A DNA stretch of 64,000 bases from Gammaproteobacteria bacterium (GTDB taxonomy: Bacteria; Pseudomonadota; Gammaproteobacteria; Steroidobacterales; Rariloculaceae), in the NCBI GenBank assembly GCA_963664945.1, contig OY761822.1:3847162-3911161 (forward strand), given 5' to 3'. The notes under the pieces are model-generated. The model ran no database searches. It saw only the letters and a program-made list of their open reading frames with translations, and was not told the origin of the DNA. Below, one piece after another: positions 8,386 to 39,537 of the stretch (positions are counted from its first letter, which is position 1; the number at the start of each line of letters is the position of its first letter). The translations under genes were made by a program, and so were the position numbers.

Positions 8386-8426
8386 TCTTGATCAACTCGT
8401 GTCGCGAGAGTGCGGGATCCCACGCA

Positions 8427-9533: not shown

Positions 9534-9588
9534 GTCGCAACCCTGTCATGTGCGTGGAACGCGGTATGGGGCATGCCCACCGGGGCTG

Positions 9589-10767: not shown

Positions 10768-10798
10768 CGACTCTTCCGTGTCCGGAATCGCATTGGTC

Positions 10799-11881
10799 CT
10801 AGCCGTGCCGCGCTTCAAAGTCCGACATGAACGCGATCAGCGCATCCACGCCCGCCTCGGGGAGCGCGTTGTAGATGCTGGCCCGCATGCCTCCAACCAG
10901 GCGGTGCCCCTTGAGATTGGCGAGGCCCGCCTGCGCCGACTCCTCGAGGAACACCGCGTCCAGTTTTTTGTCGGCGAGCGTGAACGGGATGTTCATCCAG
11001 GACCGGCAGGCGGGGTCCACGGGGTTGTCGAAGAACCCGCTCGCATCGATCGCCGCGTAGAGCTTGCCCGCCTTGCGGCGATTGCGTTCGGCCATGGCGT
11101 CGAGGCCGCCCTGCTCCCGGATCCATTCGAGCACCAGCCCGGCCACGTACCACGAAAACGTCGGCGGCGTGTTGGACATGGAATCCGCATCCGCCATGAC
11201 CCGGTAGTTGACGACCGCCGGGGTTTCCGGGCGCGCCCGTCCGAGCAGATCGTCCCGCACGATCACCACCGTGATGCCCGGCGGACCGATATTCTTCTGG
11301 GCGCCGGCGTATATCACCCCGTATCGGCCGACATCCACCGGGCGCGACAGCAGCGTCGACGACATGTCGGCGGCAATCGGGGCGTCGGACACTTCGGGGA
11401 CCTCGTGGAATTCCACCCCGACCACGGTCTCGTTGATCACGAGATGGAGGTATTCGGCATCGCCCGAAAGGCGCCAGGAAGCCGGGTCCGGGATGCTCGT
11501 GAAGTTGCCGTCCCGTCCGCTGGCTGCCTCGTTGGCGCGCAGGAAGCGCCGCGCCTCGCCAATCGCCTTGACACCCCAGTTCCCCGTGGTCACATAGTCC
11601 GCGGCATCGCCCGCTCCGGCCAGGTTGAGCGGCAGAGCCGCGAACTGCATCGTGGCGCCGCCCTGCAGGAACAGGATGCTGTAGTTTTCCGGTATCCGAA
11701 GCAGCTCGCGCAAGGCGCTCGAGGACCGCTCGGCGAGTTCGATGAATTCCTTGCCGCGATGGCTGACTTCCATCACCGACATTCCGGTGCCGCGCCAATC
11801 GAGCAGTTCGTTCCGGGCTCGTTCCAGAACGCACGTCGGAAGCGTGGCGGGACCCGGGGAGAAGTTATAGATGCGTTCCAT
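10799..11881 (-). CDS. serC: Phosphoserine aminotransferase
   Basis: MERIYNFSPGPATLP N-terminus, typical of SerC; GAQKNIGP motif. Start at ATG 11881. Confidence 0.9.
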   Translation of the reverse strand: MERIYNFSPGPATLPTCVLERARNELLDWRGTGMSVMEVSHRGKEFIELAERSSSALRELLRIPENYSILFLQGGATMQFAALPLNLAGAGDAADYVTTGNWGVKAIGEARRFLRANEAASGRDGNFTSIPDPASWRLSGDAEYLHLVINETVVGVEFHEVPEVSDAPIAADMSSTLLSRPVDVGRYGVIYAGAQKNIGPPGITVVIVRDDLLGRARPETPAVVNYRVMADADSMSNTPPTFSWYVAGLVLEWIREQGGLDAMAERNRRKAGKLYAAIDASGFFDNPVDPACRSWMNIPFTLADKKLDAVFLEESAQAGLANLKGHRLVGGMRASIYNALPEAGVDALIAFMSDFEARHG

Positions 11882-11910
11882 GAACTGCTGCGGAATCGTG
11901 CAACGGCGCG

Positions 11911-14517
<2,607 letters not shown>

Positions 14518-14785
14518 CGTCTCGCGGTCTTCGCGACGGGCTCAGTATTCCCCTGACAAACTACTCTGATACAGGCTACGCGGGTCACCGCATGACCTTC
14601 GCAGCCCCGCGGTTCAGGTCGCCGAAATGCACTTGAAGAAACCGTAATCCAAGCGTTCAGAATGACCCCGTAATTCTAACACAACAGGCGCCTTGGCCCG
14701 CGGCCGGTCCAGCAGTCTGCGCCGCAGGCTCCCGGCCCGCTATACTTTGCGCCTGTACCCGTCTCCGCCCTGGTGGCCGTCTGCC

Positions 14786-18451: not shown

Positions 18452-18745
18452 TCAGGCCGCCTCACGCTCGCGTTTCAATCGCGCAATGTCGTATTGAGCC
18501 TGTGCCGCGAGCCAGAATCGGGCCGTTGACCAGCCGGCGGCCTCCAGGTCAACCGCCAGACTGACCGGAATGCGCCCCTGACCGCCCAGAATGCGGGAGA
18601 TCTTCGCCCGCGAGATATTCAGCCTCTTGGCAGTCGCGGTGACGGTTTCGCCGTGACCGTCTATCCAGTCCCGTAACAGTTCCCCCGGATGACAGGGACT
18701 GGCGAGTTCGACGCGCTCGCCGCTTGCGTTGCCCGTGTGCTTCAT
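18452..18745 (-). CDS. HigA/VapI-family XRE helix-turn-helix antitoxin-like protein
   Basis: HPGELLRDWI....TVTATAKRLNISRAKISRILGGQGRIPVSLAVDLEAAGWSTARFWLAAQAQYDI matches the HigA (VapI) pattern. Start ATG 18745, or 18766. Confidence 0.7.
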   Translation of the reverse strand: MKHTGNASGERVELASPCHPGELLRDWIDGHGETVTATAKRLNISRAKISRILGGQGRIPVSLAVDLEAAGWSTARFWLAAQAQYDIARLKREREAA

Positions 18746-18812
18746 GTTCGCGCCCTTGCCCAGCATAGCCTGGCCGGAGATCGGCAGGACAGCGATCGAC
18801 AGGAAGAAGCGG

Positions 18813-19028
18813 CTAACGAGGCGATGACCGTGTCCGGCGTGCCTGGTGCATTCGCCAGAGCTCCGCGCCCACGTTCCAGATGAACGCCAGAACCAGCCCG
18901 AACGGCCTGAGCAGGTACGCGAGCCCCGCGAACGCGAGGATGCAAAGCGCCGCGATCAGGAACCAGAGGCTGGTCCAAATCACTCCCCACACGATGGCGT
19001 CGATGATGTTCAACAGCACTTCCAGCAT
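18813..19028 (-). CDS. Hypothetical small two-TM membrane protein
   Basis: 71 aa with strong GC3 codon bias and two hydrophobic helices (IIDAIVWGVIWTSLWFLIAALCILAFAGLAYLL / FGLVLAFIW). No obvious Shine-Dalgarno. Confidence 0.45.
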   Translation of the reverse strand: MLEVLLNIIDAIVWGVIWTSLWFLIAALCILAFAGLAYLLRPFGLVLAFIWNVGAELWRMHQARRTRSSPR

Positions 19029-19048
19029 CGGTTAACCGGGCCATGCGC

Positions 19049-19078
19049 CTATCCCCGCGAGCACGGGGAAACCCGTAC
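19049..19078 (-). repeat. Solo type I-E-like CRISPR repeat, copy B
   Basis: CTATCCCCGCGAGCACGGGGAAACCCGTAC. Differs from copy A by one substitution and one inserted G. Same orientation, 720 bp away. Confidence 0.5.
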
Positions 19079-19229
19079 CGTCGGGCGCTTTCTGGTCGAC
19101 GAACGGTTCGCGGGTGGAGTTCAACAAGTGCTCGCCGACGGCGCGCATGGCGGGGGTGAGGTCGCGGCCGGCGCGCAGCATCTAGTCCAGCGCCTCGCGG
19201 ACGCGGCGGTCGTCGAACTTCAGGTCGAT
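19079..19229 (-). pseudogene. Fragment of a phage virion-morphogenesis (Mu G / P2 S-like tail-completion) gene
   Basis: Minus-strand translation IDLKFDDRRVREALD*MLRAGRDLTPAMRAVGEHLLNSTREPFVDQKAPDG fits the conserved N-terminus of this family. In-frame TAG at 19182-19184. The similarity ends at repeat B. Confidence 0.5.
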
Positions 19230-19685
19230 ACACAACGGTGTCGATCAGCCGGCCGGCGCGACGCCCGCGGCCCGGCCATGCTCCGACTCCGCCCACATGC
19301 GGGCCTCCGCGGCAACCAATTGTCGGACTTCGTCGTCGTCGAGGACGCTGTTTTCGACCATCAGCGCCTCCATGTCCGCCTGCTATTCTTCAGCGCTGGC
19401 GTATAACGGCGGTGCCCCGTCCGTGGTCTGCCACTTGTCGAGAGTCAGTCTTATCGAGGGTGTCGTGCGCTCGAAGAATTCCTCGCGGGACACCGGTTCG
19501 TCGTCGATGTAGTGCGCTGCCCACATGTTGCCATTGTACCTCGTGCAACTCGATCTCGTACCGAATCCGCCCGTCGCGCAGTTCGGCTTCGATTCGGCTC
19601 GCCACGCGGAAACGCGTGTCGATATCGAACAAGACCTCGCGCTCCCGCGGGTTGCGGGACAGCGCCTCGAAGTGTCTTCCTTGAA

Positions 19686-22496
19686 GTTGCGGTTGGACCG
19701 CGATTTCCCATCAGCTAGACTCGTGGATCGGGTCGAACGGCGCGGACATCTGTTGCGGTTGGACCGCGATTTCCCATCAGCTAGACTATTGAAGCGCTCT
19801 CAAGCACGTCTCTGGTAGTTGCGGTTGGACCGCGATTTCCCATCAGCTAGACTTGTCCAAGAGGAGTCGCACTAAGATACCTAGTTGCGGTTGGACCGCG
19901 ATTTCCCATCAGCTAGACTGTCGTCCAGTAGCGGCCGGCATGCGGTACCGTTGCGGTTGGACCGCGATTTCCCATCAGCTAGACTCGTCGACGCCGAGGC
20001 GTCCAGCCGGGCCGCGTTGCGGTTGGACCGCGATTTCCCATCAGCTAGACTGGTCAGCGCGTTCATGGCCCAGCACAACACGTTGCGGTTGGACCGCGAT
20101 TTCCCATCAGCTAGACTGCGCGGTCCAGGCGCTCGCGCATTCCGAGCGTTGCGGTTGGACCGCGATTTCCCATCAGCTAGACTGGTGGGCGCCACCGCCG
20201 CGATCACCGCGCCGTTGCGGTTGGACCGCGATTTCCCATCAGCTAGACTGTTGACCATCGCTTCGTCGACGTCGGAGACGTTGCGGTTGGACCGCGATTT
20301 CCCATCAGCTAGACTCCGGCGGGCCGCGCCTCATCGCCGACAGCAAGTTGCGGTTGGACCGCGATTTCCCATCAGCTAGACTGCAAAGCCAAATCGCGAC
20401 AAGGGACGGACGGTTGCGGTTGGACCGCGATTTCCCATCAGCTAGACTGCGAACCCACGAGCGACATCGTGTTCTGCAGTTGCGGTTGGACCGCGATTTC
20501 CCATCAGCTAGACTGGCCTGGAGACAAAAGAAACCTCGTGGATACGTTGCGGTTGGACCGCGATTTCCCATCAGCTAGACTGTGTCGGCGGCGGTGGACC
20601 GGAGCATCGATGTTGCGGTTGGACCGCGATTTCCCATCAGCTAGACTAAGAGGCTCGGCGGGAAGAGCGCACGACGAGTTGCGGTTGGACCGCGATTTCC
20701 CATCAGCTAGACTCGCCGCTGGCTCCGGCTCAATAGCCTGCCCGTTGCGGTTGGACCGCGATTTCCCATCAGCTAGACTGGGGAATCCATCCACCACCGC
20801 GCCCAGAACGTTGCGGTTGGACCGCGATTTCCCATCAGCTAGACTGCACGCGACTCAAACAAACCTGCCAATCATGTTGCGGTTGGACCGCGATTTCCCA
20901 TCAGCTAGACTGCTCCCCGAGGCCGGTGTCCGCTTCCGCCCGTTGCGGTTGGACCGCGATTTCCCATCAGCTAGACTGTCGTGCTCGTGGTCCGCCTCGC
21001 CGTCGACGTTGCGGTTGGACCGCGATTTCCCATCAGCTAGACTCCAGGCGGCCAGCGCGCGCGATGTGCCGCTGTTGCGGTTGGACCGCGATTTCCCATC
21101 AGCTAGACTGTGGCGGTTCGTGTGGTGGCTGGTGCTCGGGTTGCGGTTGGACCGCGATTTCCCATCAGCTAGACTAGCGCTCGTTCGCCGCTGCATGCTG
21201 GATTGGTTGCGGTTGGACCGCGATTTCCCATCAGCTAGACTCGCGGGGGATCCAATCGAACAGCGCGGTGACGTTGCGGTTGGACCGCGATTTCCCATCA
21301 GCTAGACTCGTCCTGGCCGACGGCACCCGCCTGGCGGAGTTGCGGTTGGACCGCGATTTCCCATCAGCTAGACTGGTGGCGGCCGTATCGGTGGCGACGT
21401 TAACCGTTGCGGTTGGACCGCGATTTCCCATCAGCTAGACTCCTGTCCTACTAAGCCGAAACGCCTCGGGAGTTGCGGTTGGACCGCGATTTCCCATCAG
21501 CTAGACTGGCTCGACGGGGCGATGCGCGAGGGCGTCAGTTGCGGTTGGACCGCGATTTCCCATCAGCTAGACTGCGGCCGCGCATGCCGACGTGAGCCGC
21601 GCCTGTTGCGGTTGGACCGCGATTTCCCATCAGCTAGACTAGCCCAGATGCCGTCGCACAGCCACGGCAAGTTGCGGTTGGACCGCGATTTCCCATCAGC
21701 TAGACTGGCCTGCCAATGGCCGTCGTGTCCGCGGCGCCGTTGCGGTTGGACCGCGATTTCCCATCAGCTAGACTTGCGACGCCCGAGTTGCGGTTGGACC
21801 GCGTCGGATGTCCATTTCCGTTTAAGTTGCGGTTGGACCGCGATTTCCCATCAGCTAGACTCACGCGGGCGACAGCCCGGAAGCGACCTGCGTTGCGGTT
21901 GGACCGCGATTTCCCATCAGCTAGACTCGATGCCGCGCGGCTACGACGCCACGATTCCCGGCGTCGTTGCGGTTGGACCGCGATTTCCCATCAGCTAGAC
22001 CATCAGCTAGACTAGCCCCAGCCAATCGTCGGTGACGCGGACCGTTGCGGTTGGACCGCGATTTCCCATCAGCTAGACTTGGACGCCGGCGCGGTCGCGG
22101 AGCGATTTCCCATCGAGCTCAACACGGAAACTGGTTGCGGTTGGACCGCGATTTCCCATCAGCTAGACTAGACTGGCGCGGAGCGCGAGCTCAACACGGA
22201 ACTGGTTGCGTCGATTTCCCATCAGCTAGACTTTCCGTCGACACCGGCGCCCTGCTCTGCTGGTTGCGGTTGGACCGCGATTTCCCATCAGCTAGACTGG
22301 CTCACCTTCGAAGACGGCGCGGCGCTCCGTTGCGGTTGGACCGCGATTTCCCATCAGCTAGACTGCGATGGCGAAATCGCCGGGCAGCGGGACTGTTGCG
22401 GTTGGACCGCGATTTCCCATCAGCTAGACTATCGCCCCGTGACACTTGCGCGGCGCTGCCGTTGCGGTTGGACCGCGATTTCCCATCAGCTAGACT
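19686..22496 (+). CRISPR. Type II-C CRISPR array, 42 repeat units
   Basis: 36-nt consensus GTTGCGGTTGGACCGCGATTTCCCATCAGCTAGACT with a 66-nt period. Spacers are 30-32 nt in units 1-31. First repeat 19686-19721, last 22461-22496. Strand assigned from complementarity to the anti-repeat at 28302-28336. Confidence 0.97.
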
Positions 22497-22508
22497 AGAC
22501 CGAAAGAT

Positions 22509-22539
22509 AACCCCCTGATTCAACTGGGGGTTTCTTTTG
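22509..22539. terminator. Bidirectional intrinsic terminator between the array and cas2
   Basis: AACCCCC-tgattcaact-GGGGGTT followed by TCTTTTG on the plus strand (end of array transcripts). On the minus strand the same hairpin follows the cas2 stop, with a weaker T tract. Confidence 0.6.
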
Positions 22540-22591
22540 CCCTCGGGCGAAGAAAAACAAGATTTGATAGCTCAATATGGTGCGCATCGCG

Positions 22592-22924
22592 TCAAAAAAG
22601 AACATATTGATCGGGTATTTTGTTGGCTGGGCGGCGCGTTCGACCGCAGAAACTGGCAATGGATTCATATTGTTTGTCAGTGAATTGCATTATGTCGACT
22701 TTGCCATCCTCAGGCAGTGACGAAGCGACCTTTCGCATCAACGCGTCAACCGCCTCTTTTCCTGACGTATGGCGAACATAGACGGAAAATTGAGCCATTT
22801 CAAAGCCTTGGTCAAGCAGGAAGTTTCTGAATTTCGTCGCCGCTTTGCGCATTTCCGGTTCGGTCACGGGAAGATCGAAAAGGACCATCATCCACATCGT
22901 GCGATAGCCGCTCAAGTAAGGCAT
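22592..22924 (-). CDS. cas2: CRISPR-associated endoribonuclease Cas2
   Basis: 110 aa. MWMMVLFDLPV...KFRNFLLDQGFEMAQFSVY is typical of type II Cas2. The ATG lies 3 nt from the IS630 end (counting the duplicated TA). Confidence 0.9.
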   Translation of the reverse strand: MPYLSGYRTMWMMVLFDLPVTEPEMRKAATKFRNFLLDQGFEMAQFSVYVRHTSGKEAVDALMRKVASSLPEDGKVDIMQFTDKQYESIASFCGRTRRPANKIPDQYVLF

Positions 22925-22927
22925 CGC

Positions 22928-24159
22928 TAGTGTTCCATCAACTTTGTATTGATGGATAAAGTGACTTCAATTTGATGCGTGCGTCATCGGTCGTGAATCG
23001 CCAGTTGACGTGCACGGTTTCCTCGTTGCGCTGTTTTTGCCATGCGTCGATTTCACGTTTCAAGACGTGCCGGTCCGCCAGGCGGCGATCGAGGCATTGG
23101 CGCGACAGCACGCCGATTTCGATCTCGGCCATGTTCAGCCAACTGCCGTGCTTGGGGGTGAAATGGATTTCCAGCCGCCCGGCGATCCGACGCGCCTTGG
23201 CCGGTTCGAACGCTTCATATAACGAGGCCAATTTATGGATGTTCAAATTGTCCATGACCAGCACGATCCTGCGTTTCTCCGGGTAGTGCTCATCCACCAA
23301 CTCCTCGATCAACCGCGCCCAATCCACCTTCGTGCGCCGATCGGTCGCCTTGACGTGCCGCCAACCCTCCAGCGGCGCGCACAGCATGAACAGGTTGCTG
23401 ACGCCGTTGCGTTCGTATTCGTAATCGCACTTCGCCGCGTCGCCCGGTCGCGCCGGCGCCGGGGTGCGGGTTTCCTTGACGTGTTGCTTGCTGGTTTCAT
23501 CCAGGCACACCAGCACCTCGTCCTCGGCAAAATCGCGCCGATACACCTCCAGCACGTCCTCCATCGCGCAGACGAAGTCCGCATTGCGTTTCGGCGGAAT
23601 GCACCAGCAGTCCTTCAACCAAGGCTTGAGTTCGTTTTTTTTAGCGTCTGCCTCACCGCCTCCGGACTGATGGAGTCCACGATGTCGCATTCAACCAAAC
23701 GATCCGCCAACAACCTCAATGTCCAGGACTTGCGCCCCTCCGGCGCCGCCGAACAGGCCGTGGCCACGAGAAACGCCTCGCCCCCGCCATCCAGCTTCCT
23801 GGCCCTGCGGTTGCGCTGGACCTTCCGGTTCAATGCCGCTTCAAGCCCTTGCTCAACCAAACGGCGCCGCACCCGCGCGACCGTGGCCGTGCCGACCTGC
23901 AACGCCCCGGCGATGGCCTCGTCCGTGCGACCCCCCGCCTCCGAATCCTCGTCCGCCAGCAACAGTATCCTGGCGTGTGTGATCTTGCGGGCCGCGGCCT
24001 TGCCCACCGACACCAGGTCCCCCAGCATCGCCCGCTCCTCCGTCGTCAACGTCACCCTGTACTTCTTCACCTTGTCAAAACTCCCACTATGAAAAGGTTG
24101 CACGATCAATCTCATACTTTACATGAATTACAGGTCACTTCAAAATTGTTGGTACACTA
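22928..24159 (-). mobile_element. IS630-family insertion sequence including duplicated TA
   Basis: Terminal inverted repeats TAGTGTTCCATCAACTTTG (22928-22946) and CAAAATTGTTGGTACACTA (24141-24159), 16/19 matching. TA at both ends. Removing the element restores a CTAG target. Confidence 0.9.
22938..24115 (-). CDS. IS630-family transposase, two frames joined at an A8 run (programmed -1 frameshift or frameshift mutation)
   Basis: N-terminal HTH ORF 23615..24115 (KKYRVTLTTEERAML...GKAAARKITHARILL). DDE ORF 22938..23690 (LKPWLKDCWCIPP...VLVMDNLNIH...HGSWLNMAEIE). The frames overlap at the T8 run on the plus strand, 23635-23642. Confidence 0.85.
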
Positions 24160-25065
24160 GTGCAGATGCCTAAACAGGGCAAGTGGCGGCCCCGGCAGTT
24201 CAAGGTCAGACCTTTTTTTCATATAGACTTGCGCGAGCGATGTCGCAAGGCGATAAAGACAGATCTGCAGCGGCGACGCGCCTTTGGGTCCTTCGAGATC
24301 CATGATGGTCACTTTCGCAAGAGCAGACTTCGCAACTCGATCGAGACAATCGTCGGCCTTGGCAGCCAAGTGCCTGACAGTGCCGTCGACGAGCGGGCGA
24401 AACGGTTCCATGAGATCGTCCGCCAACCGTAGCGCGGTCCCTCGGCTCTGATGGTGAATCGCCAGCGATGGGTGTAATCCCGCAGCCACGATTGAGCGCG
24501 CCGTCGCGGAGCGAAGAATCGTATAGCCATAGTTGAGCATCGAATTGATGCCGCCAGCGTTGCGATTCCTTCGAAACTCTTCACCCATCATCAAAGGCCA
24601 ATACCGACGGGCCGCCAAGCTTTCGACATTGCCAGGATCGCCGGAACGCACTGATCTGATGAGTCGGCGGACTCCGGTGGAGTTTTCTCCGAATGCGTCC
24701 AACGCATCGGCTTGGGCGGTTATCTTTGCTCGAACCAGTGCTTGCCACAGACGTTTTCGCGTGGGTAACGACGCTTCGGCCTGCGCCTGCATGTGCATTC
24801 CCTGTTCGTGGTGTCCATCGATCGGCCAGACCAGTGCGGACGGCGCGTGGTTGGAACCACAGACAACGATTGGCGTGCCTCGTTCCGACATCCTGGTGGT
24901 GAGATTCGCGGACCATGTTGCACCATGGCAGTTGATGACGAGTGCGGCGATGTCGTCGAGCGCAATACGGCCCACCTGCACGCCGTCCCGACTGACGGTC
25001 ATAAAACCTCGTTTAACGGCAAGGTGCGTGCCGTCGGAAGCGATCTCGACAATTCGACCGATCAT
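24157..25065 (-). CDS. cas1: CRISPR-associated endonuclease Cas1 (type II)
   Basis: 302 aa. MIGRIVEIASDGTHLAVKRGFM... and NSMLNYGYTILR are Cas1 motifs. The ATG overlaps the cas9 stop (ATGA). The stop TAG is formed at the IS630 junction. Confidence 0.92.
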   Translation of the reverse strand: MIGRIVEIASDGTHLAVKRGFMTVSRDGVQVGRIALDDIAALVINCHGATWSANLTTRMSERGTPIVVCGSNHAPSALVWPIDGHHEQGMHMQAQAEASLPTRKRLWQALVRAKITAQADALDAFGENSTGVRRLIRSVRSGDPGNVESLAARRYWPLMMGEEFRRNRNAGGINSMLNYGYTILRSATARSIVAAGLHPSLAIHHQSRGTALRLADDLMEPFRPLVDGTVRHLAAKADDCLDRVAKSALAKVTIMDLEGPKGASPLQICLYRLATSLAQVYMKKRSDLELPGPPLALFRHLH

Positions 25066-28000
25066 GTTGGCGGCCCCGGGTCAAAGAGCTTTCCGGACAC
25101 CGTGACGCGCACCTTGCGCGCGCCCAAGGGTATCAAGCTTCCGGGGGACTTGGTCAGGTAGTTGAACCGATCGCTCTTGTCTGCATTGCGGGCCTTCAAT
25201 GAGCCTGCCTCGAAGTGTTCCGCGAGAACGATCTGCCCGGGGGATAGTTTCTCAACCCGCACGATCCGTCGTTCAGAGCCGGTACTGATCGCCAGCATGT
25301 CATGTTTGCGTATTCGCATGATCAATGGCGTTCCATCGGACAATTTCTGGGCGCCTGAATCGAATCCATCTTGATTTGCGTCGAATCGTGAAACGACATG
25401 GCCGGTCCACTTCCCCTGAGGACCTTGATAGATGTCGTAGCAATAGTTCGAATCGCCCTTGTAGGCCTTGAGAGTCAGACCGTCAGGCGTGGAAACGGTC
25501 GGAATGACACGCAGCCTTTCGCACAACCTCACTCGTCTGACGGGCGGGTTCATGCCCTCGCCGGCTTCGACCAATGCCCGGGTGAACGCCGCGCCGGCCA
25601 GGCCAGTAGTGGCCGCGAGCAGTTGTTCGCGGATCAGGGGATCGCGTATGTTCGCGATTTGCCCGGCCCCGAGTCTGGAGAGGGGCACGCGGTGCACAAC
25701 CATGGAACGGCCCTTGGCATCAGGCGCTTCCACGACGCCATACGCAGTATCGTTGTGCAGGGAGCCCTGAACACCGTGGTCGGGCTTGTGGCTGACGATG
25801 ATGCGGCTAATGCATTCGCGCACGGTGTCGCGGAATCCGGTCCATGGCGTCGGAAGATTGGCTAGGTAGCGCTTGTCAAAGCGTTCTTCCGCCATCCCCG
25901 CGCGAGTTGCAACGTCGGCGAGGATTCTCCGATCGGTGAGTGCGACCACAATTGCATCAATGGCGTGATGCCTGTGATCGAGGCGGTTTTTGGCGGGAAT
26001 AACCTTTTCGCCTTGACCGTGCTCAGAAAGGACGGAATCGAGTCCCCAGGCCCAACGCAGATCAGACGTCAGGCGTCCGGGAGTCACCCAGACACGGGCG
26101 CCCGTGTACATCAGGTAGTGTCTGGCGATCCGGCTCATGTACCGGGTATCGACGAGTTGGCGGTCAAGAAAATCCCGCTCCTCGTCATTGTACCGGTCCA
26201 TGGCGTCGGGCCCGAATCGCCAAGACTTGTTTGCGGGCATTTTTGCGGCGCGCGCGGAAATCGCTTCCCAGTCGTATTCGCCGGGCGAATCGGCGAACGC
26301 CTCATACGGCGAGCGCTGTCCCTTGACCCTGTTGGCAACCCGCATTGACAACGTCTTGTTGGCGACGCCGTTGTCGAGGGTTTGGGAAAGCGGAAGGATG
26401 TGCTCGATTTCGACCTGATCGGAAAAGAGTCGGCTAAGGCCGATCTGCTCCCCGGTGTAGGGGCAGCGACGATCCAGAGGGTTTGCGGGATTGAGTTCTT
26501 CCCAGAGTCTCAATCGCAGGCGATTCTCGTACGAATCTGCTTGACCCAGTTTCTTGAGCGTTTCTCGGCGCTCATCATTGGCACGCTGGTTGTCACGCTG
26601 GACACGGTCCAGATTTGCCTTTCCCTTGGCCGACAGGGGCAGATCGCGGGCCAACTCGACGATGATTTCTTCGGGCCTGCCAAAGTGCGCCATCAGCTCG
26701 TTCGCGAGTCGTCGAAGCTGATTGAGCGCAACGTGCACGGTTGGATTGGCGAGCTTTCCGTATCGCTTCTCGGGAATGTCGGACGGGTCGCCGGATCCGA
26801 ATGCGACGTGGCGCTGAAGTACTTCGCCGTAATAGGGAAGAACGTCGAAGACTTCGCCATCGAAGTCCAGTGCGGAATGGTCTTCGAAACCGGCACCGCG
26901 TACAGCTTCATCGTAGTTGACGACATCTCGCTTGAGTTCCTCTAGAACTTTTAGCGCGGTGGTTCGACCAAGCTGAGCATGTCCGCTGGGCAGGTGAGCC
27001 GTCATGACAGCGACCGCCGTTTCGGCAGAAAGTCCGAACTGGCTTAGCAGCCAGTCGCGAAGGGCGGATTCGTTTTCTTCAGCGAGCAGCATCTCGACAA
27101 CGCGCTCCTGATCCGAAAATGACAGTTTGCGCCACTGCTTTCCCCACTTGGTCTTCGCGGCCAGTACGGCGGCCGTTTGGTCGCCATCAAGGTGTCTTCG
27201 CGTTTCACTTTCCAGGTTAAAGCGTGTGCCAGAAGGAGCCTTTAATGACTTTCGTGCCAACTCGAACGTGAGCTTTCGAACCGAGAGAGCTTTGTTTATA
27301 AGGGTATCGCGCTCCTCACGCGATAATTGGCGCTCGGCTTCCCCCGGTGACCGGATTCGCAGGTGATTGATCTCCTGGTAAATGCGAAGCCGCTGCATAG
27401 ACGGCAGTGCCCTTGGCGCGCGTTCTTCCAAGGGATTGAGGGAACATTTTCCGACAGGTTGCGGTTTGAGCTTGCGCTGGAAAAACAGAATGTCGTACAA
27501 ATCGTCGCGCGCGTTGTCGGTCAGAGTGCCGTCGTGAAACCTATTCTGCGCGGCCCACAGACATTGAAATTCGTCTTCGACCATCTCGCGGGTGGGGTAA
27601 AAGTCGTAGGCGGCTTTTGCGCCGGTGCCCACGAGGCGCGCGCGAACCGGGTTGGTTGAAGCGGCCTTGTTATCCAGAGTCCCGTCCTTCACGCGGGGCC
27701 GGGCCAGATGCTCGCCAAGCGTGCGCGCGCCGGATTCCTGCATCTTGAGTTGCAACGCGATAGCCGCTGACCTGATCTTGCCGTGTTCTTTGTCCGCGGC
27801 CTTTTCGGTCTTGCGGTTGGACTTGAAGCCACGACGCTGCTGCAGGTGAAACAATGCTCGGCCCAGTTGATGCAGCGTCAATTTCTCATCCAGACCTCTT
27901 ACACGTAACACCCACGGATCTTCTCGTTGCAAGTCCTTTCGTGCTTCTGCGTCGGCTGGCATCAGACCGTGCCGGATCAACGCCTCCATGAAACGATTGC

Positions 28001-28220
28001 GCCGATTCACATAGCGATCTCGCATCCGTCGCTGCTGACGAGGCAGACGTCGCGCTACGGCGTTGGACTGCCGGTCCTTTGGGTTGCGTCCGTCGGAAAA
28101 TATCCTCACGCCAGAAGAGAGAAGGCTGGTGGGCCGACGTTCTTCATTGCCGCCCTCCAGTGAGAGGGCGGCCCAACCGATGGAATTCGTGCCAAGATCC
28201 AGTCCGAGCCGCCAAGCCAT
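25062..28220 (-). CDS. cas9: Cas9 endonuclease, compact type II-C class (1052 aa)
   Basis: RuvC-I MAWRLGLDLGTNSIGWA; Arg-rich bridge helix RRLPRQQRRMRDRYVNRRNRF; HNH VEIEHILPLSQTLDNGVANKTLSMRVANRVKGQRSP; RuvC-III HHAIDAIVVA. GGAGGTG lies 6 nt before ATG 28220. No csn2 or cas4 is present. Confidence 0.95.
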   Translation of the reverse strand: MAWRLGLDLGTNSIGWAALSLEGGNEERRPTSLLSSGVRIFSDGRNPKDRQSNAVARRLPRQQRRMRDRYVNRRNRFMEALIRHGLMPADAEARKDLQREDPWVLRVRGLDEKLTLHQLGRALFHLQQRRGFKSNRKTEKAADKEHGKIRSAAIALQLKMQESGARTLGEHLARPRVKDGTLDNKAASTNPVRARLVGTGAKAAYDFYPTREMVEDEFQCLWAAQNRFHDGTLTDNARDDLYDILFFQRKLKPQPVGKCSLNPLEERAPRALPSMQRLRIYQEINHLRIRSPGEAERQLSREERDTLINKALSVRKLTFELARKSLKAPSGTRFNLESETRRHLDGDQTAAVLAAKTKWGKQWRKLSFSDQERVVEMLLAEENESALRDWLLSQFGLSAETAVAVMTAHLPSGHAQLGRTTALKVLEELKRDVVNYDEAVRGAGFEDHSALDFDGEVFDVLPYYGEVLQRHVAFGSGDPSDIPEKRYGKLANPTVHVALNQLRRLANELMAHFGRPEEIIVELARDLPLSAKGKANLDRVQRDNQRANDERRETLKKLGQADSYENRLRLRLWEELNPANPLDRRCPYTGEQIGLSRLFSDQVEIEHILPLSQTLDNGVANKTLSMRVANRVKGQRSPYEAFADSPGEYDWEAISARAAKMPANKSWRFGPDAMDRYNDEERDFLDRQLVDTRYMSRIARHYLMYTGARVWVTPGRLTSDLRWAWGLDSVLSEHGQGEKVIPAKNRLDHRHHAIDAIVVALTDRRILADVATRAGMAEERFDKRYLANLPTPWTGFRDTVRECISRIIVSHKPDHGVQGSLHNDTAYGVVEAPDAKGRSMVVHRVPLSRLGAGQIANIRDPLIREQLLAATTGLAGAAFTRALVEAGEGMNPPVRRVRLCERLRVIPTVSTPDGLTLKAYKGDSNYCYDIYQGPQGKWTGHVVSRFDANQDGFDSGAQKLSDGTPLIMRIRKHDMLAISTGSERRIVRVEKLSPGQIVLAEHFEAGSLKARNADKSDRFNYLTKSPGSLIPLGARKVRVTVSGKLFDPGPPT

Positions 28221-28259
28221 TTCATGCACCTCCGAGTATCGAACGCAACATTTTAGCGA

Positions 28260-28288
28260 TTGATTGGCCGAATTGTTGGGGATAGAAT
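28260..28288 (+). promoter_or_regulatory. Sigma70-like promoter for the tracrRNA
   Basis: TTGATT (28260-28265), 17-nt spacer, TAGAAT (28283-28288). Lies 13 nt upstream of the anti-repeat and is divergent from cas9. Confidence 0.45.
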
Positions 28289-28294
28289 CAGCGA

Positions 28295-28390
28295 TTCCCA
28301 ATCTAGCTGATGGGAAGTCGTGGTCTTTCCGTTAACAAGGTGAAAGATCCACAAAATTTAGGGCAGCCTTCGGGCTGCCCTTTCCCTTTG
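28295..28390 (+). ncRNA. Predicted tracrRNA
   Basis: The anti-repeat at 28302-28336 (TCTAGCTGATGGGAAGTCGTGGTCTTTCCGTTAAC) pairs with almost the whole repeat, using G:U wobbles, a UU/UU mismatch and a 1-nt bulge. It ends in the hairpin GGGCAGCC-TTCG-GGCTGCCC plus TTTCCCTTT (28361-28390). The 5' end is inferred from the promoter. Confidence 0.75.
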
Positions 28391-28809
28391 GCGCCAAGAG
28401 CGCCGGATTGAACTGATGTTGCACTTCGGGCAGGGTACGCCCGTAGCCCATTAGGGCGACAGGCTGGTTTTGCAGCTTACGGTTTCGGATCGGTTAAATG
28501 ATTGCTGGAGGCTCCGTCAAGGAGCGGGGTCCGAGGGAAGCGGAAACGGCATTAATCAGGTCGTTAAGGTCCATGTTCGGCGGTCAACAACCGTTCGCCG
28601 ATTTGCGAGATTGCATCGAGTCCTGCTGTTGCATGCTGCAAATGGTGCGCTTCTTTTCCGCAGTCCTGGACCAGCCACGGTGGGACAGGCAGATTGTTTG
28701 AGGTTTGAGCTGGTGATTAGGGGTAAATTCGATCATGACCGCAAACTGCCCGATTGCCGGCGTGAGCTATTTCGAGTCCCTGGACCGCCCGGCGATGAAG
28801 CCGCTGGGT

Positions 28810-29862
28810 TCAATTCGCCGCACCGACGATGCGCCGGGTCGCCGCGAGCAATTCCGCGCCTGTGCCGCAATCGATGATCGCATCGCCCACGGTCGCCAAG
28901 CGCTCCGGCTCCGAAATGCCCGCCAGCAACACCGACAGGCGTTCGCCCGTGTCTTCGCCGAATCGGCGCGCCGCCTGGCGCTGCAGCAAGCGCCGTTCCA
29001 ATTCAAGGCCCTCCGCTCGGCCCTGCGCCAACGCCCGCGCACGAATCTGCGCCTCTTTCCACCGCTCTTGCGCCTTCCACCTCTCCACAGCCAACGATCC
29101 CATCGCTTCCACCTCTCCTGCCGCCGCCATTCTGGCCAACTCGTCCCGCAACGCCTCGTCGTCGCGCGTCAGCACGCCGTAGTCGTTTTCCCACGACCGC
29201 CGCACCCACTGGGCGAACGCCTTGCGCAACCCCGCCTGCTCAGGGCCCGCCAGCACCTCGTCCACCCGGCGCAATATCGCCACCGACTCCTCGAACGTGG
29301 CCTGTTCCAGCGCCACCTGCAAGCCGACCGCGCTGTCCTTCGGTACGCGGTCGGTCTTTGCCCGCTGCATGTCGAGCAGCACGTACTTGTTCGACGGCTG
29401 GAGCCGCGCAATTGCCGACGATGCCGGTGCGACCAGTTCCGAAACGTCCAGCGGCACCGTCCAGGGCGAGGACCGATTGTAAACCACGAAGGGGATGACC
29501 GGCGGCAGTGGCGTCATCGGCTGCGCGTCGTCGCTGAACTCCTTCCTCCGGCGCAGCAATCCCTCCCAAGCGAGTCCCGTGTAGGTCAACACCCGCAACG
29601 CCATGCGCAGGTCAACGCTGGACTGAAACTCCAGCAGTACGAGTACATGGACCCAGGCACCGTCAGGCGCCGAACGGGCACGCAGCCACCACATCAGGTC
29701 GCCCTCTCGCCGCGCAAGCCCCCGCCCGACATGCGATGCCGGCAGCGGCTCCAGCGTATTGAAGTAGAATCCGGGCCACGCGCCGTCCGGCGGGAACCCG
29801 CGCAGCAGGTCCGCGACCATGCGCCGGTGCGAGTACTGCAGTTTGTAGGCGGCGTCGTGCAT
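28810..29862 (-). CDS. Rpn-family recombination-promoting nuclease / PD-(D/E)XK putative transposase with DUF4351-like C-terminus
   Basis: MHDAAYKLQYSHRRMVADLLRGF...VHVLVLLEFQSSVD.RMALR N-terminal pattern. The C-terminal coiled region ends ...RRFGEDTGERLSVLL.GISEPERL. Start set at ATG 29862. Confidence 0.72.
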   Translation of the reverse strand: MHDAAYKLQYSHRRMVADLLRGFPPDGAWPGFYFNTLEPLPASHVGRGLARREGDLMWWLRARSAPDGAWVHVLVLLEFQSSVDLRMALRVLTYTGLAWEGLLRRRKEFSDDAQPMTPLPPVIPFVVYNRSSPWTVPLDVSELVAPASSAIARLQPSNKYVLLDMQRAKTDRVPKDSAVGLQVALEQATFEESVAILRRVDEVLAGPEQAGLRKAFAQWVRRSWENDYGVLTRDDEALRDELARMAAAGEVEAMGSLAVERWKAQERWKEAQIRARALAQGRAEGLELERRLLQRQAARRFGEDTGERLSVLLAGISEPERLATVGDAIIDCGTGAELLAATRRIVGAAN

Positions 29863-30281
29863 GAGGTTTACTCCGTCAAATGCCGATCTGCGTGTGGCAC
29901 ATCGTCGAACGCCAGATTGTACGGACCGGGACTTCCGCAACGGCATGACATTTTCGGGCAGAATTGCGAGATTTGCGGTGCCCGAGATGAATATCGTCAA
30001 GGAAGTTATGCTGCGAAGACGTGTTCGGCCACTTCGGCGTAACACCTTGAGAGTTTCCAGTCGATCCCATTCAAAAGCACCGCCCGATCCACGGCAAAGG
30101 TATCCCTTCGCCTATGGTCGTCGAATGATCGCTCGGATCGAAGCGACGCGGGGCCGGACTTTGTGGTTTAGCTGTGGGCGATTCACCTCCTTTGGATTAT
30201 TCCTGTTTCCAAGGAAAATCGGCTACAAGTCAATGTGGGAAAAGCAGCCACGTTCAGACTAAATTATCTGCGAGACACCAC

Positions 30282-31019
30282 TCACGCTGGCCCCAATCCC
30301 ACAGCCCCGTATAGAGCCGCAAGCTCGGCCCCGATCAACTGCCTTGTCATGCCGCGATGCAAATCACCCAGCGAGACCGGGCCATAGTCGGTGCGCAGCA
30401 GCCGGTTTACCGGCACGTCCAGCGCCGCCAACAGCCGCCTGACCTCGCGATTTCGGCCCTCGCGGAGCGAAACCCGGTACCAGGCGTTGGCGCCCGATCC
30501 GCCGTGTGCGGCGATGGTGTCGAATTTCGCAACGCCGTCCTCGAGTTGGATGCCTTCCCGCAGTCGCTTCAATTGCGCGGTGGAAAGCCGCCCCAGGATA
30601 CGCACGGCGTATTGCCTGCGAATTTCGTAGCTCGGGTGCATCAGGCGATGCGCGAGTTCGCCGTCGGTGGTCAATAGCAACAGGCCGGCTGAGTTGATAT
30701 CCAGCCGGCCCACGGCAATCCAGCGCCCGCGCCGCGGCGGTCTGACCTGCTGGAAAACGGTTGGCCGGCCCTCCGGGTCCCGCCTCGTCGTCACCTCGCC
30801 AATGCGCTTGTAGTAAGCGATGCACTGCGCGGTTCCGGTCGTCGCCGGCAAGTGCATCAAGCGGCCGTCGAGATAGACGCGCTCACCGCCCGCGAGCTTG
30901 TCGCCGAGTTTCGCCGGAACGTCCCCGACGACCACGCGGCCCTGCCTGATCCACCGTTCAACCTCGCGCCTCGACGCCACGCCGGCGTTGGCCAGCACCT
31001 TCTGAATACGATCAGCCAC
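30282..31019 (-). CDS. rluB: 23S rRNA pseudouridine(2605) synthase
   Basis: S4 domain RIQKVLANAGVASRREVERWI and RsuA/RluB catalytic motif GRLDINSAGLLLLTTDGELAHRL. Start moved to in-frame GTG 31019, overlapping the scpB end by 8 nt. Confidence 0.85.
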   Translation of the reverse strand: MADRIQKVLANAGVASRREVERWIRQGRVVVGDVPAKLGDKLAGGERVYLDGRLMHLPATTGTAQCIAYYKRIGEVTTRRDPEGRPTVFQQVRPPRRGRWIAVGRLDINSAGLLLLTTDGELAHRLMHPSYEIRRQYAVRILGRLSTAQLKRLREGIQLEDGVAKFDTIAAHGGSGANAWYRVSLREGRNREVRRLLAALDVPVNRLLRTDYGPVSLGDLHRGMTRQLIGAELAALYGAVGLGPA

Positions 31020-31728
31020 AAGCCGAGTTGGAATCCGGATCCTCTGGCGCCGTGTCATCACGAGCGGTGGCGAAACCCGGATCCTCCGGCGCCATCTCAT
31101 CACGAGCGGTGGCGGAACCCGGATCCTCCGGCGCCGCCTCTTGCAGCAGTTCGGGCTGAGGACTCGGCTCGGGAAGCTCCAGCGCCACGTTGAGGTCATC
31201 GAGGTCCCTGATCTCAGACAGCGGCGGCAGATCGGCGAGCTTCCTGAGTCCGAAGTAATCGAGAAATTCCCTGGTCGTGGCGTACAGGGCGGGCCTGCCC
31301 GGTACGTCCCTTCGTCCGACGACGCGGATCCAGCCGCGCTCCAGCAGCGTCCTGACCATGTTGGTGCTGACCGAAACGCCGCGAACCTCCTCGATCTCTC
31401 CCCGGGTCACCGGCTGGCGATAGGCAATCAGGGCCAGCGTTTCGAGCATCGCCCTGGAATACCGCGGCGCGCGCTGCTCCCAAAGCGGCGCGAGTCGGGC
31501 CGTCATGGATGGGCGGATCTGAATCCGGTAACCGCTGGCCACCTCCTTCAGTTCGATGCCGCGGCCCCGGTAGTCCTTGCCGAGTTCTTCGAGAGCCGCC
31601 CTCAGCGTGCCGCGCTCCACGTTCCCGGCGCCCGCCGCGAACAGCTCGCCGAGCTGGTCCAGGCTCAACGGACGCCCGGCCCCCAGGAGGGCGGCCTCCA
31701 TGACGTGCTTGATCTCCGCGACTTCCAT
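31012..31728 (-). CDS. scpB: Segregation and condensation protein B
   Basis: VMEAALLGAGRPLSLDQL...LETLALIAYRQPVTRGEIEEVRGV is the ScpB winged-helix pattern. The C-terminus carries 14-aa tandem repeats. Confidence 0.85.
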   Translation of the reverse strand: MEVAEIKHVMEAALLGAGRPLSLDQLGELFAAGAGNVERGTLRAALEELGKDYRGRGIELKEVASGYRIQIRPSMTARLAPLWEQRAPRYSRAMLETLALIAYRQPVTRGEIEEVRGVSVSTNMVRTLLERGWIRVVGRRDVPGRPALYATTREFLDYFGLRKLADLPPLSEIRDLDDLNVALELPEPSPQPELLQEAAPEDPGSATARDEMAPEDPGFATARDDTAPEDPDSNSACG

Positions 31729-31737
31729 CGCTCCGGC

Positions 31738-32736
31738 TCAGGCCTGCTGTTGTTCCGGCCCGCCGCTGTCCGGACCGCCGCCGCCACCTCCGCCGCTGTC
31801 CGGCCGGGCGCTGTCCGGACCGCCGCCGTCATCTCCGCCGCTGTCCGGCCCGGCGCTGTCCGGATCCGGCGACCCCGCGGAGGCGCGCAGGTAGATGGGT
31901 CCGTAGAGTTCGTTCTGGACCACGTCCACCGTCGTTTCCTTGATCAACTCCAGAATGGCGAGGAACGTCACCGCCAGGCCGGGCCGGCCTTCGCGAGGAT
32001 CGAAAAGCTGGCTGAATTCGGTGAATCCGCCGTCTTCAAGCGCGTCCAGTATCTGGGACATCCGCTCCCTGACCGACAGGCGCTCCCGTTGCACATGATG
32101 GTGGGAGTAGAGATCCGCCCGCCGGACGGCATCGTGGAACGCAAGCAACAATTCTCTCAGGTCCACGTCCGGCGGCCTGGTGACCAGCCGTTTTCCCACG
32201 ACCTCCGCCGTCGCCTGCGCGATGTCCCTTTCCATGCGCTCCAGCGCGTCCATGTCATCGGCGGCGGCCTTGAATCGCTCGTACTCCTGGAGGCGGCGGA
32301 CCAGTTCGGCGCGGGGGTCCTCTTCTTCGTCGCTGCCTCCGGGCGGTCTCGGCAGCAGGATTCTCGACTTGATCTCGGCCAGCGTGGCCGCCATGACAAG
32401 GTATTCGCCCGCCAGCTCGAACTGCATGTCCCGCATGAGGTCAATGTAGCGCGTGTATTGGACGGTGACCTCGGCGATGGGAATGTCGAGAATGTCCAGA
32501 TTCTGCCGCCTGATGAGATACAGCAGCAGGTCGAGCGGCCCCTCGAAGGCTTCCAGGAAGACCTTGAGCGCGTGGGGCGGGATATAGAGGTCCCGGGGCA
32601 GTTCGGTCACCGGCTCGCCCTCGACCACGGCGAAGGGCATCTCACGCTGCCGGGGGTCGCCCGCTTGGCCTGAGATGGGCGGCGCCGTGGGAACCAGCTT
32701 GAGCCTGGGTCTGGATGAACGCCCGGCCGCGGTCAT
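31738..32736 (-). CDS. scpA: Segregation and condensation protein A
   Basis: FEGPLDLLLYLIRRQNLDILDIPIAEVT is the ScpA signature. An alternative start is MPFAVVEGEP at 32640. The C-terminal tail is Gly/Asp/Pro/Ser-rich. Confidence 0.82.
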   Translation of the reverse strand: MTAAGRSSRPRLKLVPTAPPISGQAGDPRQREMPFAVVEGEPVTELPRDLYIPPHALKVFLEAFEGPLDLLLYLIRRQNLDILDIPIAEVTVQYTRYIDLMRDMQFELAGEYLVMAATLAEIKSRILLPRPPGGSDEEEDPRAELVRRLQEYERFKAAADDMDALERMERDIAQATAEVVGKRLVTRPPDVDLRELLLAFHDAVRRADLYSHHHVQRERLSVRERMSQILDALEDGGFTEFSQLFDPREGRPGLAVTFLAILELIKETTVDVVQNELYGPIYLRASAGSPDPDSAGPDSGGDDGGGPDSARPDSGGGGGGGPDSGGPEQQQA

Positions 32737-35972: not shown

Positions 35973-38618
<2,646 letters not shown>

Positions 38619-38742
38619 CCTACTGATAATGTCGCATCAGCGCGCCCACAAGCGTGCAGATGCGCGGCGTCGGCTCGCCGCGCTGACGCGGAGGGAAATG
38701 AGTATTTCCATGGAAGCTTTCATGGGATAGGCAAGCCCGCGG

Positions 38743-39537
38743 TCAGCGGCCGGACTGCCGGCGGCGGTACTCGATCAATTCCTCGCGAACGTACCGTTCG
38801 CTCTGGATGGTCCACGAATTCCCCGACTCGTCCAATAATTCAGCGTCAAGCTCGTTGCAAAGTTCGCGCGCGATGCCGATCATCCTGTCGAATCGCTCCA
38901 CCGGGTCGCGGGGCCCGGGCAAGACCAGGAAAAAGGTCATGCCGGGCAACGTGGAACCCGTGAGACTGGACAGATCGAACGAACCGGGCTCAACCAGGTT
39001 GGCGACGCTGAATCCGCTCTCCGGCGTATTGCCGTCTCCGCAGTAGTGGAAGATACCGTATGGGCCATGCCGGAGGCCCGCCTCGCGCAATGCCTGCACG
39101 GTGCGCTCCGCGTCGAGGCGCCCGTCTTCCTTGGCAACCAGGCGCAAACTGACGACCTGCTCCGTATGGGCCACGACCCCGGCGGCGGCGGGGCCGTCCC
39201 GCGGCCCGTCCGGCGGCTCGCCGGAAACCTCCGTGGAGGGGAGTCCCTCTTCCGCGGCGCCGGCGGAGGCGCTGGCGGAGGCGCCGGCGGAGGCGCCTGC
39301 CACCTCGCCGGTGGCCGTCAAGCCATCTCGCGACTGGGCCAGCCTTGTGGCCGAAACAACCGCCTCCGGTTTCCCGGGCCGCAACTCCGATTCTTCAGGC
39401 CAGATTTCCGGTTCCGACCGGGGCGTCCCGGACGGCCTTGAGCGCGACTTGAGCAAGCCCGCGAGGAACACGCCCAGAATGACCAGCAGACCCAGCCCGA
39501 GCACGACCCAGCGCAATTCCAGTTCGGACCAGACCAT
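38743..39537 (-). CDS. zipA: Cell division protein ZipA
   Basis: N-terminal TM helix, Pro/Ala/Glu-rich linker, and the C-terminal FtsZ-binding domain pattern (VVSLRLVAKEDG...GPYGIFHY...LPGMTFFLVLPGP). The ATG overlaps the smc stop (TAATG). Confidence 0.82.
   Translation of the reverse strand: MVWSELELRWVVLGLGLLVILGVFLAGLLKSRSRPSGTPRSEPEIWPEESELRPGKPEAVVSATRLAQSRDGLTATGEVAGASAGASASASAGAAEEGLPSTEVSGEPPDGPRDGPAAAGVVAHTEQVVSLRLVAKEDGRLDAERTVQALREAGLRHGPYGIFHYCGDGNTPESGFSVANLVEPGSFDLSSLTGSTLPGMTFFLVLPGPRDPVERFDRMIGIARELCNELDAELLDESGNSWTIQSERYVREELIEYRRRQSGR

Follow-up and report, generated by a model that had tools for sequence, protein, structure and literature searches.

A type II-C CRISPR-Cas9 locus with an IS630-family insertion between cas1 and cas2 and predicted guide RNAs

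Two characterised Cas9 proteins of clade IX are the closest described counterparts of the system reported here. EHCas9 is a metagenomic type II-C protein of 1070 aa whose protospacer-adjacent motif (PAM) is NGG, with NGGDT as the optimum (Esquerra-Ruvira et al. 2023, PMC10281378). SdoCas9, from Sulfitobacter donghicola, is also a type II-C enzyme and has the PAM NRRNTT (Gasiunas et al. 2020, PMC7606464). The CRISPR arrays that belong to type II-C systems can be transcribed from promoters within the repeats (PMC10281378). In this study, we analysed a 64,000-nucleotide stretch of a gammaproteobacterial contig (OY761822.1, positions 3,847,162 to 3,911,161), which we call the window and in which all positions below are counted. 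Its block 19686-28390 holds a CRISPR array, cas2, an IS630-family insertion sequence, cas1, cas9 and a gene for a trans-activating CRISPR RNA (tracrRNA). Judged from its sequence, this is very probably a type II-C CRISPR-Cas9 adaptive immunity locus that was probably acquired horizontally and inserted among chromosomal housekeeping genes, and it is genuine and apparently intact. The features of the block are as follows.

19686..22496, + strand: CRISPR array, 41 full 36-nt repeats plus one internally deleted copy, 35 unique spacers
21775..22262, + strand: scarred zone of the array, with truncated or duplicated repeat pieces and odd-length spacers
22512..22530, either strand: G+C-rich hairpin with T-runs on both strands, likely a bidirectional terminator
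22592..22924, - strand: cas2, 110 aa (PF09827, TIGR01573)
22930..24157, - strand: IS630-family element, 1228 bp (NF033545), with TA duplication and terminal inverted repeats
24157..25065, - strand: cas1, 302 aa (cas1_NMENI, type II class)
25062..28220, - strand: cas9, 1052 aa (TIGR01865)
28260..28288, + strand: promoter-like TTGATT-17-TAGAAT of the tracrRNA gene, also present in relatives
28296..28390, + strand: tracrRNA gene, about 95 nt, both ends predicted

The genes cas9-cas1-[IS630]-cas2 thus occupy the - strand in that order, and the array and the tracrRNA gene, which is divergent from cas9, occupy the + strand. In such a system, Cas9 with its dual RNA would cleave DNA that matches a spacer and lies beside a 3' PAM, and Cas1-Cas2 would add new spacers.

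Cas proteins and the CRISPR array

The cas9 gene (28220..25062) encodes a protein of 1052 aa. Although its reading frame extends upstream without a stop as far as a TTG at 28301, we prefer the ATG at 28220, because GGAGG stands 8 nt upstream of it and because homologues begin at the same M-x-W-R-L-G-L-D. The protein matches the TIGR01865 equivalog model with 579 bits (cut-off 100) over model positions 2-1069 of 1070, as well as the Pfam families RuvC_III, HNH_4 and Cas9_a (PF18541, PF13395 and PF18470). Its landmarks comprise RuvC-I with D8, an Arg-rich bridge helix at about residues 55-75, a REC lobe and a WED/PI region from about residue 831, and its further catalytic residues are E522 in RuvC-II, H607 and N630 in HNH, and H752 and D755 in RuvC-III. 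In an alignment to ThermoCas9 (9ar4), which is its top-scoring PDB chain, D8, IVELARD (E522), EIEHILP...NKTL...ANR (H607, N630) and HRHHAIDA (H752, D755) line up. The catalytic residues are invariant or at least 90% conserved across 36 homologues (alignment A1). A preliminary description, made from the letters of the window alone, had proposed a 1052-aa Cas9 with intact RuvC-I, RuvC-II, RuvC-III, bridge-helix and HNH motifs; this was borne out, and no catalytic residue was found mutated on alignment. The AlphaFold model of the protein has a mean predicted local distance difference test (pLDDT) score of 79.6, and its best fold matches in the PDB are Nme1Cas9, ThermoCas9, HpaCas9 and GeoCas9 (E from 1e-44 to 1e-39). 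These are all II-C enzymes, and such enzymes also lead its matches by sequence.

The start of cas1 (25065..24157) overlaps the stop of cas9 in an ATGA, as had been seen earlier, and Cas1 matches cas1_NMENI with 216 bits. The cas2 gene (22924..22592) aligns with the cas2 genes of two related loci, designated L081 and L082. Neither csn2 nor cas4 was found in the block, where, apart from the cas genes, family matches were obtained only for the two open reading frames (ORFs) of the split IS630 transposase. The cas1_NMENI match, the Cas2 match and the absence of csn2 and cas4 place the locus in type II-C. This agrees with the preliminary description, which had reported a complete type II-C system, and all of the parts that it named (cas9, cas1, cas2, array and tracrRNA) are present. 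Relatives carry a bare three-gene cas9-cas1-cas2 operon, and the layout cas9-cas1-cas2-array is found, free of IS630, in L081, L082 and a third related locus, L084 (MKWU01014366.1).

The repeat, GTTGCGGTTGGACCGCGATTTCCCATCAGCTAGACT, occurs in 40 exact copies and in one copy with a T36C change at 21966. A further copy of 28 nt, from which 8 internal bases are deleted (22205-22232), brings the number to the 42 repeats counted previously. The 35 spacers, of 30-32 nt, have a mean G+C content of 69%, and no two are alike. Within the scarred zone there are a 17-nt truncated repeat (21787-21803), a repeat end duplicated in tandem over 12 nt (22002-22013), a 12-nt piece from inside a repeat (22103-22114), one 38-nt spacer and two decayed spacer remnants that are near-duplicates of each other. 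The array of L084 has the identical 36-nt repeat, in 29 exact copies and one variant, but none of its 28 spacers recurs in the window. An identical repeat accompanied by wholly different spacers fits a history of spacer turnover.

Another related II-C locus (L083) lies at 8006-14640 of an Azospirillum thermophilum megaplasmid (NZ_CP029356.1). At 5 of 36 positions its repeat is different. The annotation splits its cas9 into two overlapping coding sequences, which implies a frameshift or a pseudogene, and an MmeI-type restriction-modification gene pair adjoins the locus.

The tracrRNA and transcription of the array

Outside the array, the reverse complement of the repeat is found once, as an anti-repeat at 28300-28335 (+). 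The two can pair at 31 of 36 positions by Watson-Crick or G-U pairs. The anti-repeat lies 7-8 nt downstream of TTGATT-17-TAGAAT, a promoter-like element that is kept in L082 and, as TTGATC/TAGACT, in L081. It is followed by CAAGGUGAAAGAUCCACAAAAU, a 9-bp G+C-rich terminator hairpin (28360-28381) and UUUCCCUUU. In full, the order of the tracrRNA parts is anti-repeat, GUUAACAAG, a small hairpin or UGAAAGAU motif, CACAAAAU, terminator hairpin and UUUCCCUUU; the fold of this 97-nt stretch has a free energy of -41.1 kcal/mol (z = -4.5). We predict TTGATT-17-TAGAAT to be the promoter of the tracrRNA and the hairpin at 28360-28381 to be its terminator. The 5' part of the repeat (GUUGCGGUUGGACCGCGAUUUCCC...) would pair with the anti-repeat in a duplex where the mismatches G1/A and U3/U are fixed and UU/UU forms an internal loop. 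Rfam, searched at gathering thresholds, gave no match anywhere in the window. This is no evidence against the tracrRNA, since it only means that no described family reached the threshold.

Related loci carry the same arrangement. The best anti-repeat site is followed by the same CA(A/C)G tail in 41 of the 57 related loci that have a 36-nt repeat; nearly all of these 41 sites are on the strand opposite cas9, and each of the 16 that were inspected individually is upstream of cas9. When repeat, GAAA and anti-repeat were aligned without gaps for 39 loci, 81% of cells were paired, compared with 34-43% when the partner was slid, although this percentage is inflated by taking the best-pairing site of each locus. 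Changes on both sides were seen at 29 of the 36 pairs, and the covariation score was 0.48 versus 0.18 in shuffles. The shared position of the anti-repeats and their conserved tail are independent of the best-pairing choice. Across loci, the tail of the tracrRNA shows an invariant UAACAAG, a covarying closing pair and a covarying terminator stem. The corresponding single-guide RNA (sgRNA) is predicted to be N20-24 + GUUGCGGUUGGACCGCGAUU + GAAA + AGUCGUGGUCUUUCCGUUAACAAGGUGAAAGAUCCACAAAAUUUAGGGCAGCCUUCGGGCUGCCCUUUCCCUUU.

A second complementarity was observed within the tracrRNA, where the segment after GUUAACAAG (GGUGAAAGAUCCAC; tracrRNA 28320-28353) could pair with the anti-repeat over the 3' half of the latter (GUGGUCUUUCC). 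Among 36 loci, duplexes of this type had a mean of -10.0 kcal/mol with the partner from the same locus versus -8.0 kcal/mol across loci, and in 19 loci the own partner was among the 8 best of 36; both statistics ignore kinship between the loci. An additional layer in the tracrRNA, either an auto-inhibitory fold of the free molecule or base triples with the repeat:anti-repeat duplex like those of the Campylobacter sgRNA, is a speculative idea to which we give rather little credence.

Since the anti-repeat lies on the + strand, CRISPR RNAs (crRNAs) would be made from the + strand, and the array would be transcribed towards cas2. This orientation is also supported by the GTTG...TAnnnT polarity of 53 related repeats and by the terminator after the last repeat. 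The hairpin in question (22512-22530) lies between the last repeat and the cas2 stop and is kept in L081, L082, L084 and two further loci, L001 and L002. It is likely to be a bidirectional terminator that serves the convergent array and cas transcripts.

The end of the repeat appears to be under a constraint of its own. TAnnnT closes 45 of the 53 distinct related repeats, and a TA at positions 31-32 is present in 49. In 17 loci, at least three of the last six repeat bases are unpaired with the anti-repeat; the TA persists in 16 of them, and duplex formation therefore does not explain the constraint. In L081 and L002, the terminal cas-distal repeat lacks its 5' part and retains its 3' part, which is consistent with a first repeat whose sole task is to provide a promoter. 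In-repeat -10 boxes, with which the conserved TAnnnT agrees, have been described for Neisseria and Campylobacter, and for Neisseria in-repeat promoters were reportedly shown experimentally by Zhang et al. in 2013. The elements in the repeat of the window, TTGGAC-17-TAGACT, match the consensus at 3/6 and 4/6 positions. Based on these analyses, and by analogy with Neisseria and Campylobacter, crRNAs of this array probably start from the -10-like TAGACT at the 3' end of each repeat, which TTGGAC precedes at a distance of 17 nt. Such crRNAs would have their 5' ends inside the spacer, and their transcription would stop at the 22512-22530 hairpin. That TAnnnT is conserved at the repeat ends of more than 50 loci points to a wide distribution of in-repeat promoters among proteobacterial II-C systems.

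The IS630 insertion, spacer searches and genomic setting

In the window, cas1 and cas2 are 1.23 kb apart, and the distance is filled by the IS630-family element (22930-24157). The preliminary description had correctly placed both genes in the block but overlooked the element that separates them. Its target duplication, TA, is present at 22928-22929 and 24158-24159. A repeat finder reported inverted-repeat arms of 26 nt at 22927-22952 and 24135-24160 (81% complementary), which extend past both ends of the element over the duplicated TA and one further base. The transposase is encoded by two ORFs, 24115..23615 and 23690..22938, whose overlap is CTAAAAAAAACG; they are joined there by a -1 shift on a slippery A8 run. 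Both ORFs match NF033545, the N-terminal one at positions 3-108 and the C-terminal one at 106-299, and they also match HTH and DDE_3 Pfam families. The element resembles the IS630 family in its DDE_3 transposase (NF033545), its size of about 1.2 kb, its terminal inverted repeats, its insertion at the TA of CTAG with TA duplication, and its two ORFs joined at an A-run.

The relatives L081, L082 and L084, three in all, have the empty site, CTAGCGATG. The last of these reads ...CTCTAGCGATGCC... at this site and has 85% nucleotide identity to the window over cas1 and the 3' part of cas9; the Cas9 proteins of L081 and L082 are 79% and 82% identical to that of the window. The insertion point is the TA of CTAG within the 5-nt gap between cas1 and cas2. 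With its first base, the element completes the TAG stop of cas1, the ATG of cas2 is unaltered, and the transposase is co-oriented with the cas genes. The insertion is recent, because its TA duplication is intact and because it is absent from relatives at 82-85% identity. With both ORFs intact and the element running in the same direction, cas2 would still be expressible by read-through; its coupling to cas1 would be lost, and adaptation may be weakened. No near-identical copy of the element was found in the plasmid collection, and the window showed no second one, though no dedicated search was made for it. An IS630-like DDE ORF was also observed at the cas-distal flank of the L084 array, the relevant stretches of this metagenomic contig being 1-1300 and 1321-3276, and IS630 elements may recur around such loci.

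The insertion bears on the alternative that the locus is a decaying remnant, in which Cas9 is perhaps still made while adaptation, and perhaps interference, has been lost, the IS630 element having uncoupled cas2 and recombination having scarred the array. Besides the element between cas1 and cas2, this would account for the truncated, duplicated and internally deleted repeats in 21775-22262 and for the lack of a spacer match in any sequence searched, and the Azospirillum thermophilum locus with its cas9 in two coding sequences indicates that decay occurs in the group. We nevertheless consider it unlikely. The three cas ORFs are full length with intact catalytic residues, the 41 full repeats are identical but for a single base in one of them, and the promoter, anti-repeat and terminator of the tracrRNA are intact and match those of close relatives. 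Further, the insertion is recent and its orientation permits read-through, and spacers of uncultured lineages often have no match in databases. An adaptive immunity locus with a recent insertion is the reading that we favor.

The spacers were searched against several collections. The whole array gave only chance-level matches to GenBank phages and PLSDB plasmids (E of at least 0.06), the sole strong match being the related array of Azospirillum thermophilum. Sixteen spacers of the window, searched exactly in IMG/VR as pairwise-merged IUPAC patterns, had no match there, and two of these sixteen had none in JGI metagenomes. Likewise, 74 spacers of relatives had no match in phages, and the L084 array had none in plasmids. 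The preliminary description had looked to spacer matches in phage, plasmid and metagenome data for protospacers and a PAM; the searches just listed yielded neither. Nor can a PAM be borrowed from relatives, because WED/PI is the most divergent part of Cas9, with the lowest identity of the protein among close relatives (69-77%). A full-text literature search with the repeat string found no paper.

As no external targets were identified, we also considered that this Cas9 might act mainly outside defence, in endogenous gene regulation or RNA targeting, as has been found for some Cas9 systems. No positive point was found for such a role, and we regard it as highly improbable. With up to 7 mismatches allowed, no spacer matched the flanking 61 kb of the window. 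In addition, the array is long and its spacers are diverse, neither nuclease site is disrupted, and the relative with an identical repeat has entirely different spacers, as turnover of immune memory would give.

Several points nonetheless weigh against the reading of the block as a working immunity locus, or against parts of the mechanism proposed for it. Decay may be setting in, of which the IS630 insertion and the scars in the array could be signs. With no protospacer in the searched sets, neither targets nor a PAM can be derived. In Cas9, E606 precedes the catalytic His, where ThermoCas9 and EHCas9 have Asp; the column of residue 606 is absent from the invariant and nearly invariant columns listed for the 36 homologues of alignment A1, and the residue before the catalytic His presumably varies among relatives. 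The predicted in-repeat promoter is weak by consensus, with AG where an extended -10 has TG, a promoter scan did not call it, and TAnnnT could instead serve recognition by Cas1-Cas2 or Cas9. The best-pairing choice behind the paired percentage of the duplex belongs here as well.

Around the block lie genes of the chromosomal core, namely gyrA (11911-14517), an RNA pseudouridine synthase gene, ligA, zipA and smc. The ligA gene, the ZipA-like gene and smc are within 35976-43043 in the order smc-zipA-ligA, which is typical of gamma- and beta-proteobacteria. The G+C content is 58% over the cas genes (22001-30000) versus about 65% in both flanks. A YhgA-like ORF of 411 aa with a Transposase_31 match (PF04754, E = 5e-17) lies at 28810-30045 (-), about 420 bp past the tracrRNA terminator, and had no NCBIfam or PADLOC match. 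Taken together, the core-gene setting, the drop in G+C content and the transposase ORF suggest that the cas block was acquired horizontally.

In contrast with the gene order, most named Cas9 relatives come from alphaproteobacterial metagenome-assembled genomes (MAGs). The best named match of GyrA is to a 'Rhodospirillaceae' MAG (91%), followed by Gammaproteobacteria MAGs at 76-77%; some MAG labels may be wrong. The 1168-aa protein at 39537-43043 had PADLOC matches and was considered as a defence gene; its PADLOC matches reflect the fold of an SMC ATPase, and its SMC_N and hinge Pfam matches identify it as chromosomal Smc. Between a short-chain dehydrogenase/reductase gene and the array, 18452-19684 contains a small ORF as well as several overlapping ORFs without a family match, all of which may or may not be real genes. 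An anti-CRISPR or anti-CRISPR-associated (aca) module was considered at this place and rejected, with no PADLOC match and a single sub-threshold Pfam match, that of the small ORF to HTH_31 (E = 1e-4). Tandem repeats were observed at 31035-31135 (42-nt unit, 2.4 copies) and 31754-31864 (45-nt unit, 2.5 copies), in or beside the ORFs 30282-31199 (-) and 31141-32673 (+).

Comparison with relatives and characterised systems

The protein database holds 7103 homologues of the window Cas9 at E <= 1e-20. The nearest are metagenomic proteins with 83, 82 and 79% identity, and the nearest named ones are proteins of Rhodospirillales or Alphaproteobacteria MAGs with 62-64%. The named relatives are proteobacterial II-C Cas9s. 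A scan of the GTDB genome collection with the single Cas9 protein gave no match; in an alignment-based scan of GTDB, the best representative had a Cas9 with 63% identity. The search against characterised orthologues that the preliminary description had called for found none nearly identical to the window Cas9, whose identity is 41.8% to EHCas9 and 42.6% over 399 aa to SdoCas9. The description of this Cas9 as uncharacterised was upheld accordingly, the best tested protein being about 42% identical. Identity to EHCas9 and SdoCas9 is thus about 42%, versus about 21% to the Nme, Geo and Thermo Cas9s in fold alignments.

The window Cas9 itself is unstudied, but it falls within a large known group that has tested relatives. 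With 7103 homologues and two characterised relatives at about 42% identity, the locus opens no new question, and its only unusual feature is the recent IS630 element between cas1 and cas2. Its practical value is limited: it offers another compact (1052 aa) II-C Cas9 in which a useful PAM might be sought, and its guide RNA can be modelled directly on the validated SdoCas9 (Sdo) sgRNA. The cleanly bounded insertion is a small natural experiment, which could show whether adaptation needs the coupling of cas1 and cas2.

For the comparison with EHCas9, its sequence was rebuilt from supplementary Figure S2 of PMC10281378, and the 1070 aa obtained equal the stated length. The EHCas9 locus is similar to that of the window in its cas9-cas1-cas2 order, its 36-bp repeats and its tracrRNA of about 100 nt, which lies upstream of cas9 with its own promoter and terminator. 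Its array is likewise inferred to be transcribed in the direction of the tracrRNA. In contrast, EHCas9 has Asp before the HNH catalytic His where the window Cas9 has Glu, and the two proteins are 41.8% identical over their full length and 38% identical in WED/PI. Because of these identities, the PAM of EHCas9 is not transferable, and that of the window Cas9 may differ from both NGG (EHCas9) and NRRNTT (SdoCas9).

SdoCas9 shares the three-gene II-C layout and is of similar size (1070-1071 aa, compared with 1052 aa). Its identity of 42.6% covers the N-terminal 399 aa, a comparison that stops short of the PAM-interacting domain. The Sdo repeat, GUUGCGGCUGGACCUCGGAUUUUGAACAGCUAUUCU, is identical to that of the window at 26 of 36 positions, and both start with GUUGCGG and end with UAnnnU. 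The Sdo tracrRNA (...GGUCGAGCCGUUAACAAGCAUUCGAUUGCACCACAUUAAAACGCGGGCCACGGCCCGCGUUUUCUUUUU) has the same layout as that of the window, with anti-repeat, GUUAACAAG, small hairpin, CAC..AU and terminator. The Sdo sgRNA has been validated biochemically, and the predicted guide of the window is homologous to it.

Nme1Cas9 of Neisseria meningitidis is the best fold match of the window Cas9 (E = 5e-44, template modelling score about 0.55), but the two are only about 21% identical in the structural alignment (phmmer E near 1e-53). The repeat of the window also differs from that of Neisseria in having no TG of an extended -10, and the rest of the anti-repeat differs. In-repeat promoters were reportedly shown by experiment in Neisseria, whereas those of the window are predicted. 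Nevertheless, both systems have a 36-nt repeat that starts with GUUG and ends with a -10-like hexamer (UACAAU in Nme and UAGACU in the window), both have an array convergent with the cas operon, and both have the tracrRNA motif AAGG..UGAAA(A)GAU..CC(G/A)CAA. The Nme2 sgRNA contains AAGGCCGUCUGAAAAGAUGUGCCGCAA, which is the same UGAAAGAU/CC(A/G)CAA element as in the window. The preliminary description had held the repeat and anti-repeat to be unlike those of model II-C systems. This view does not stand, given that the Sdo repeat is identical at 26 of 36 positions within the same guide layout and that the UGAAAGAU/CC(A/G)CAA element is common to the window and Neisseria.

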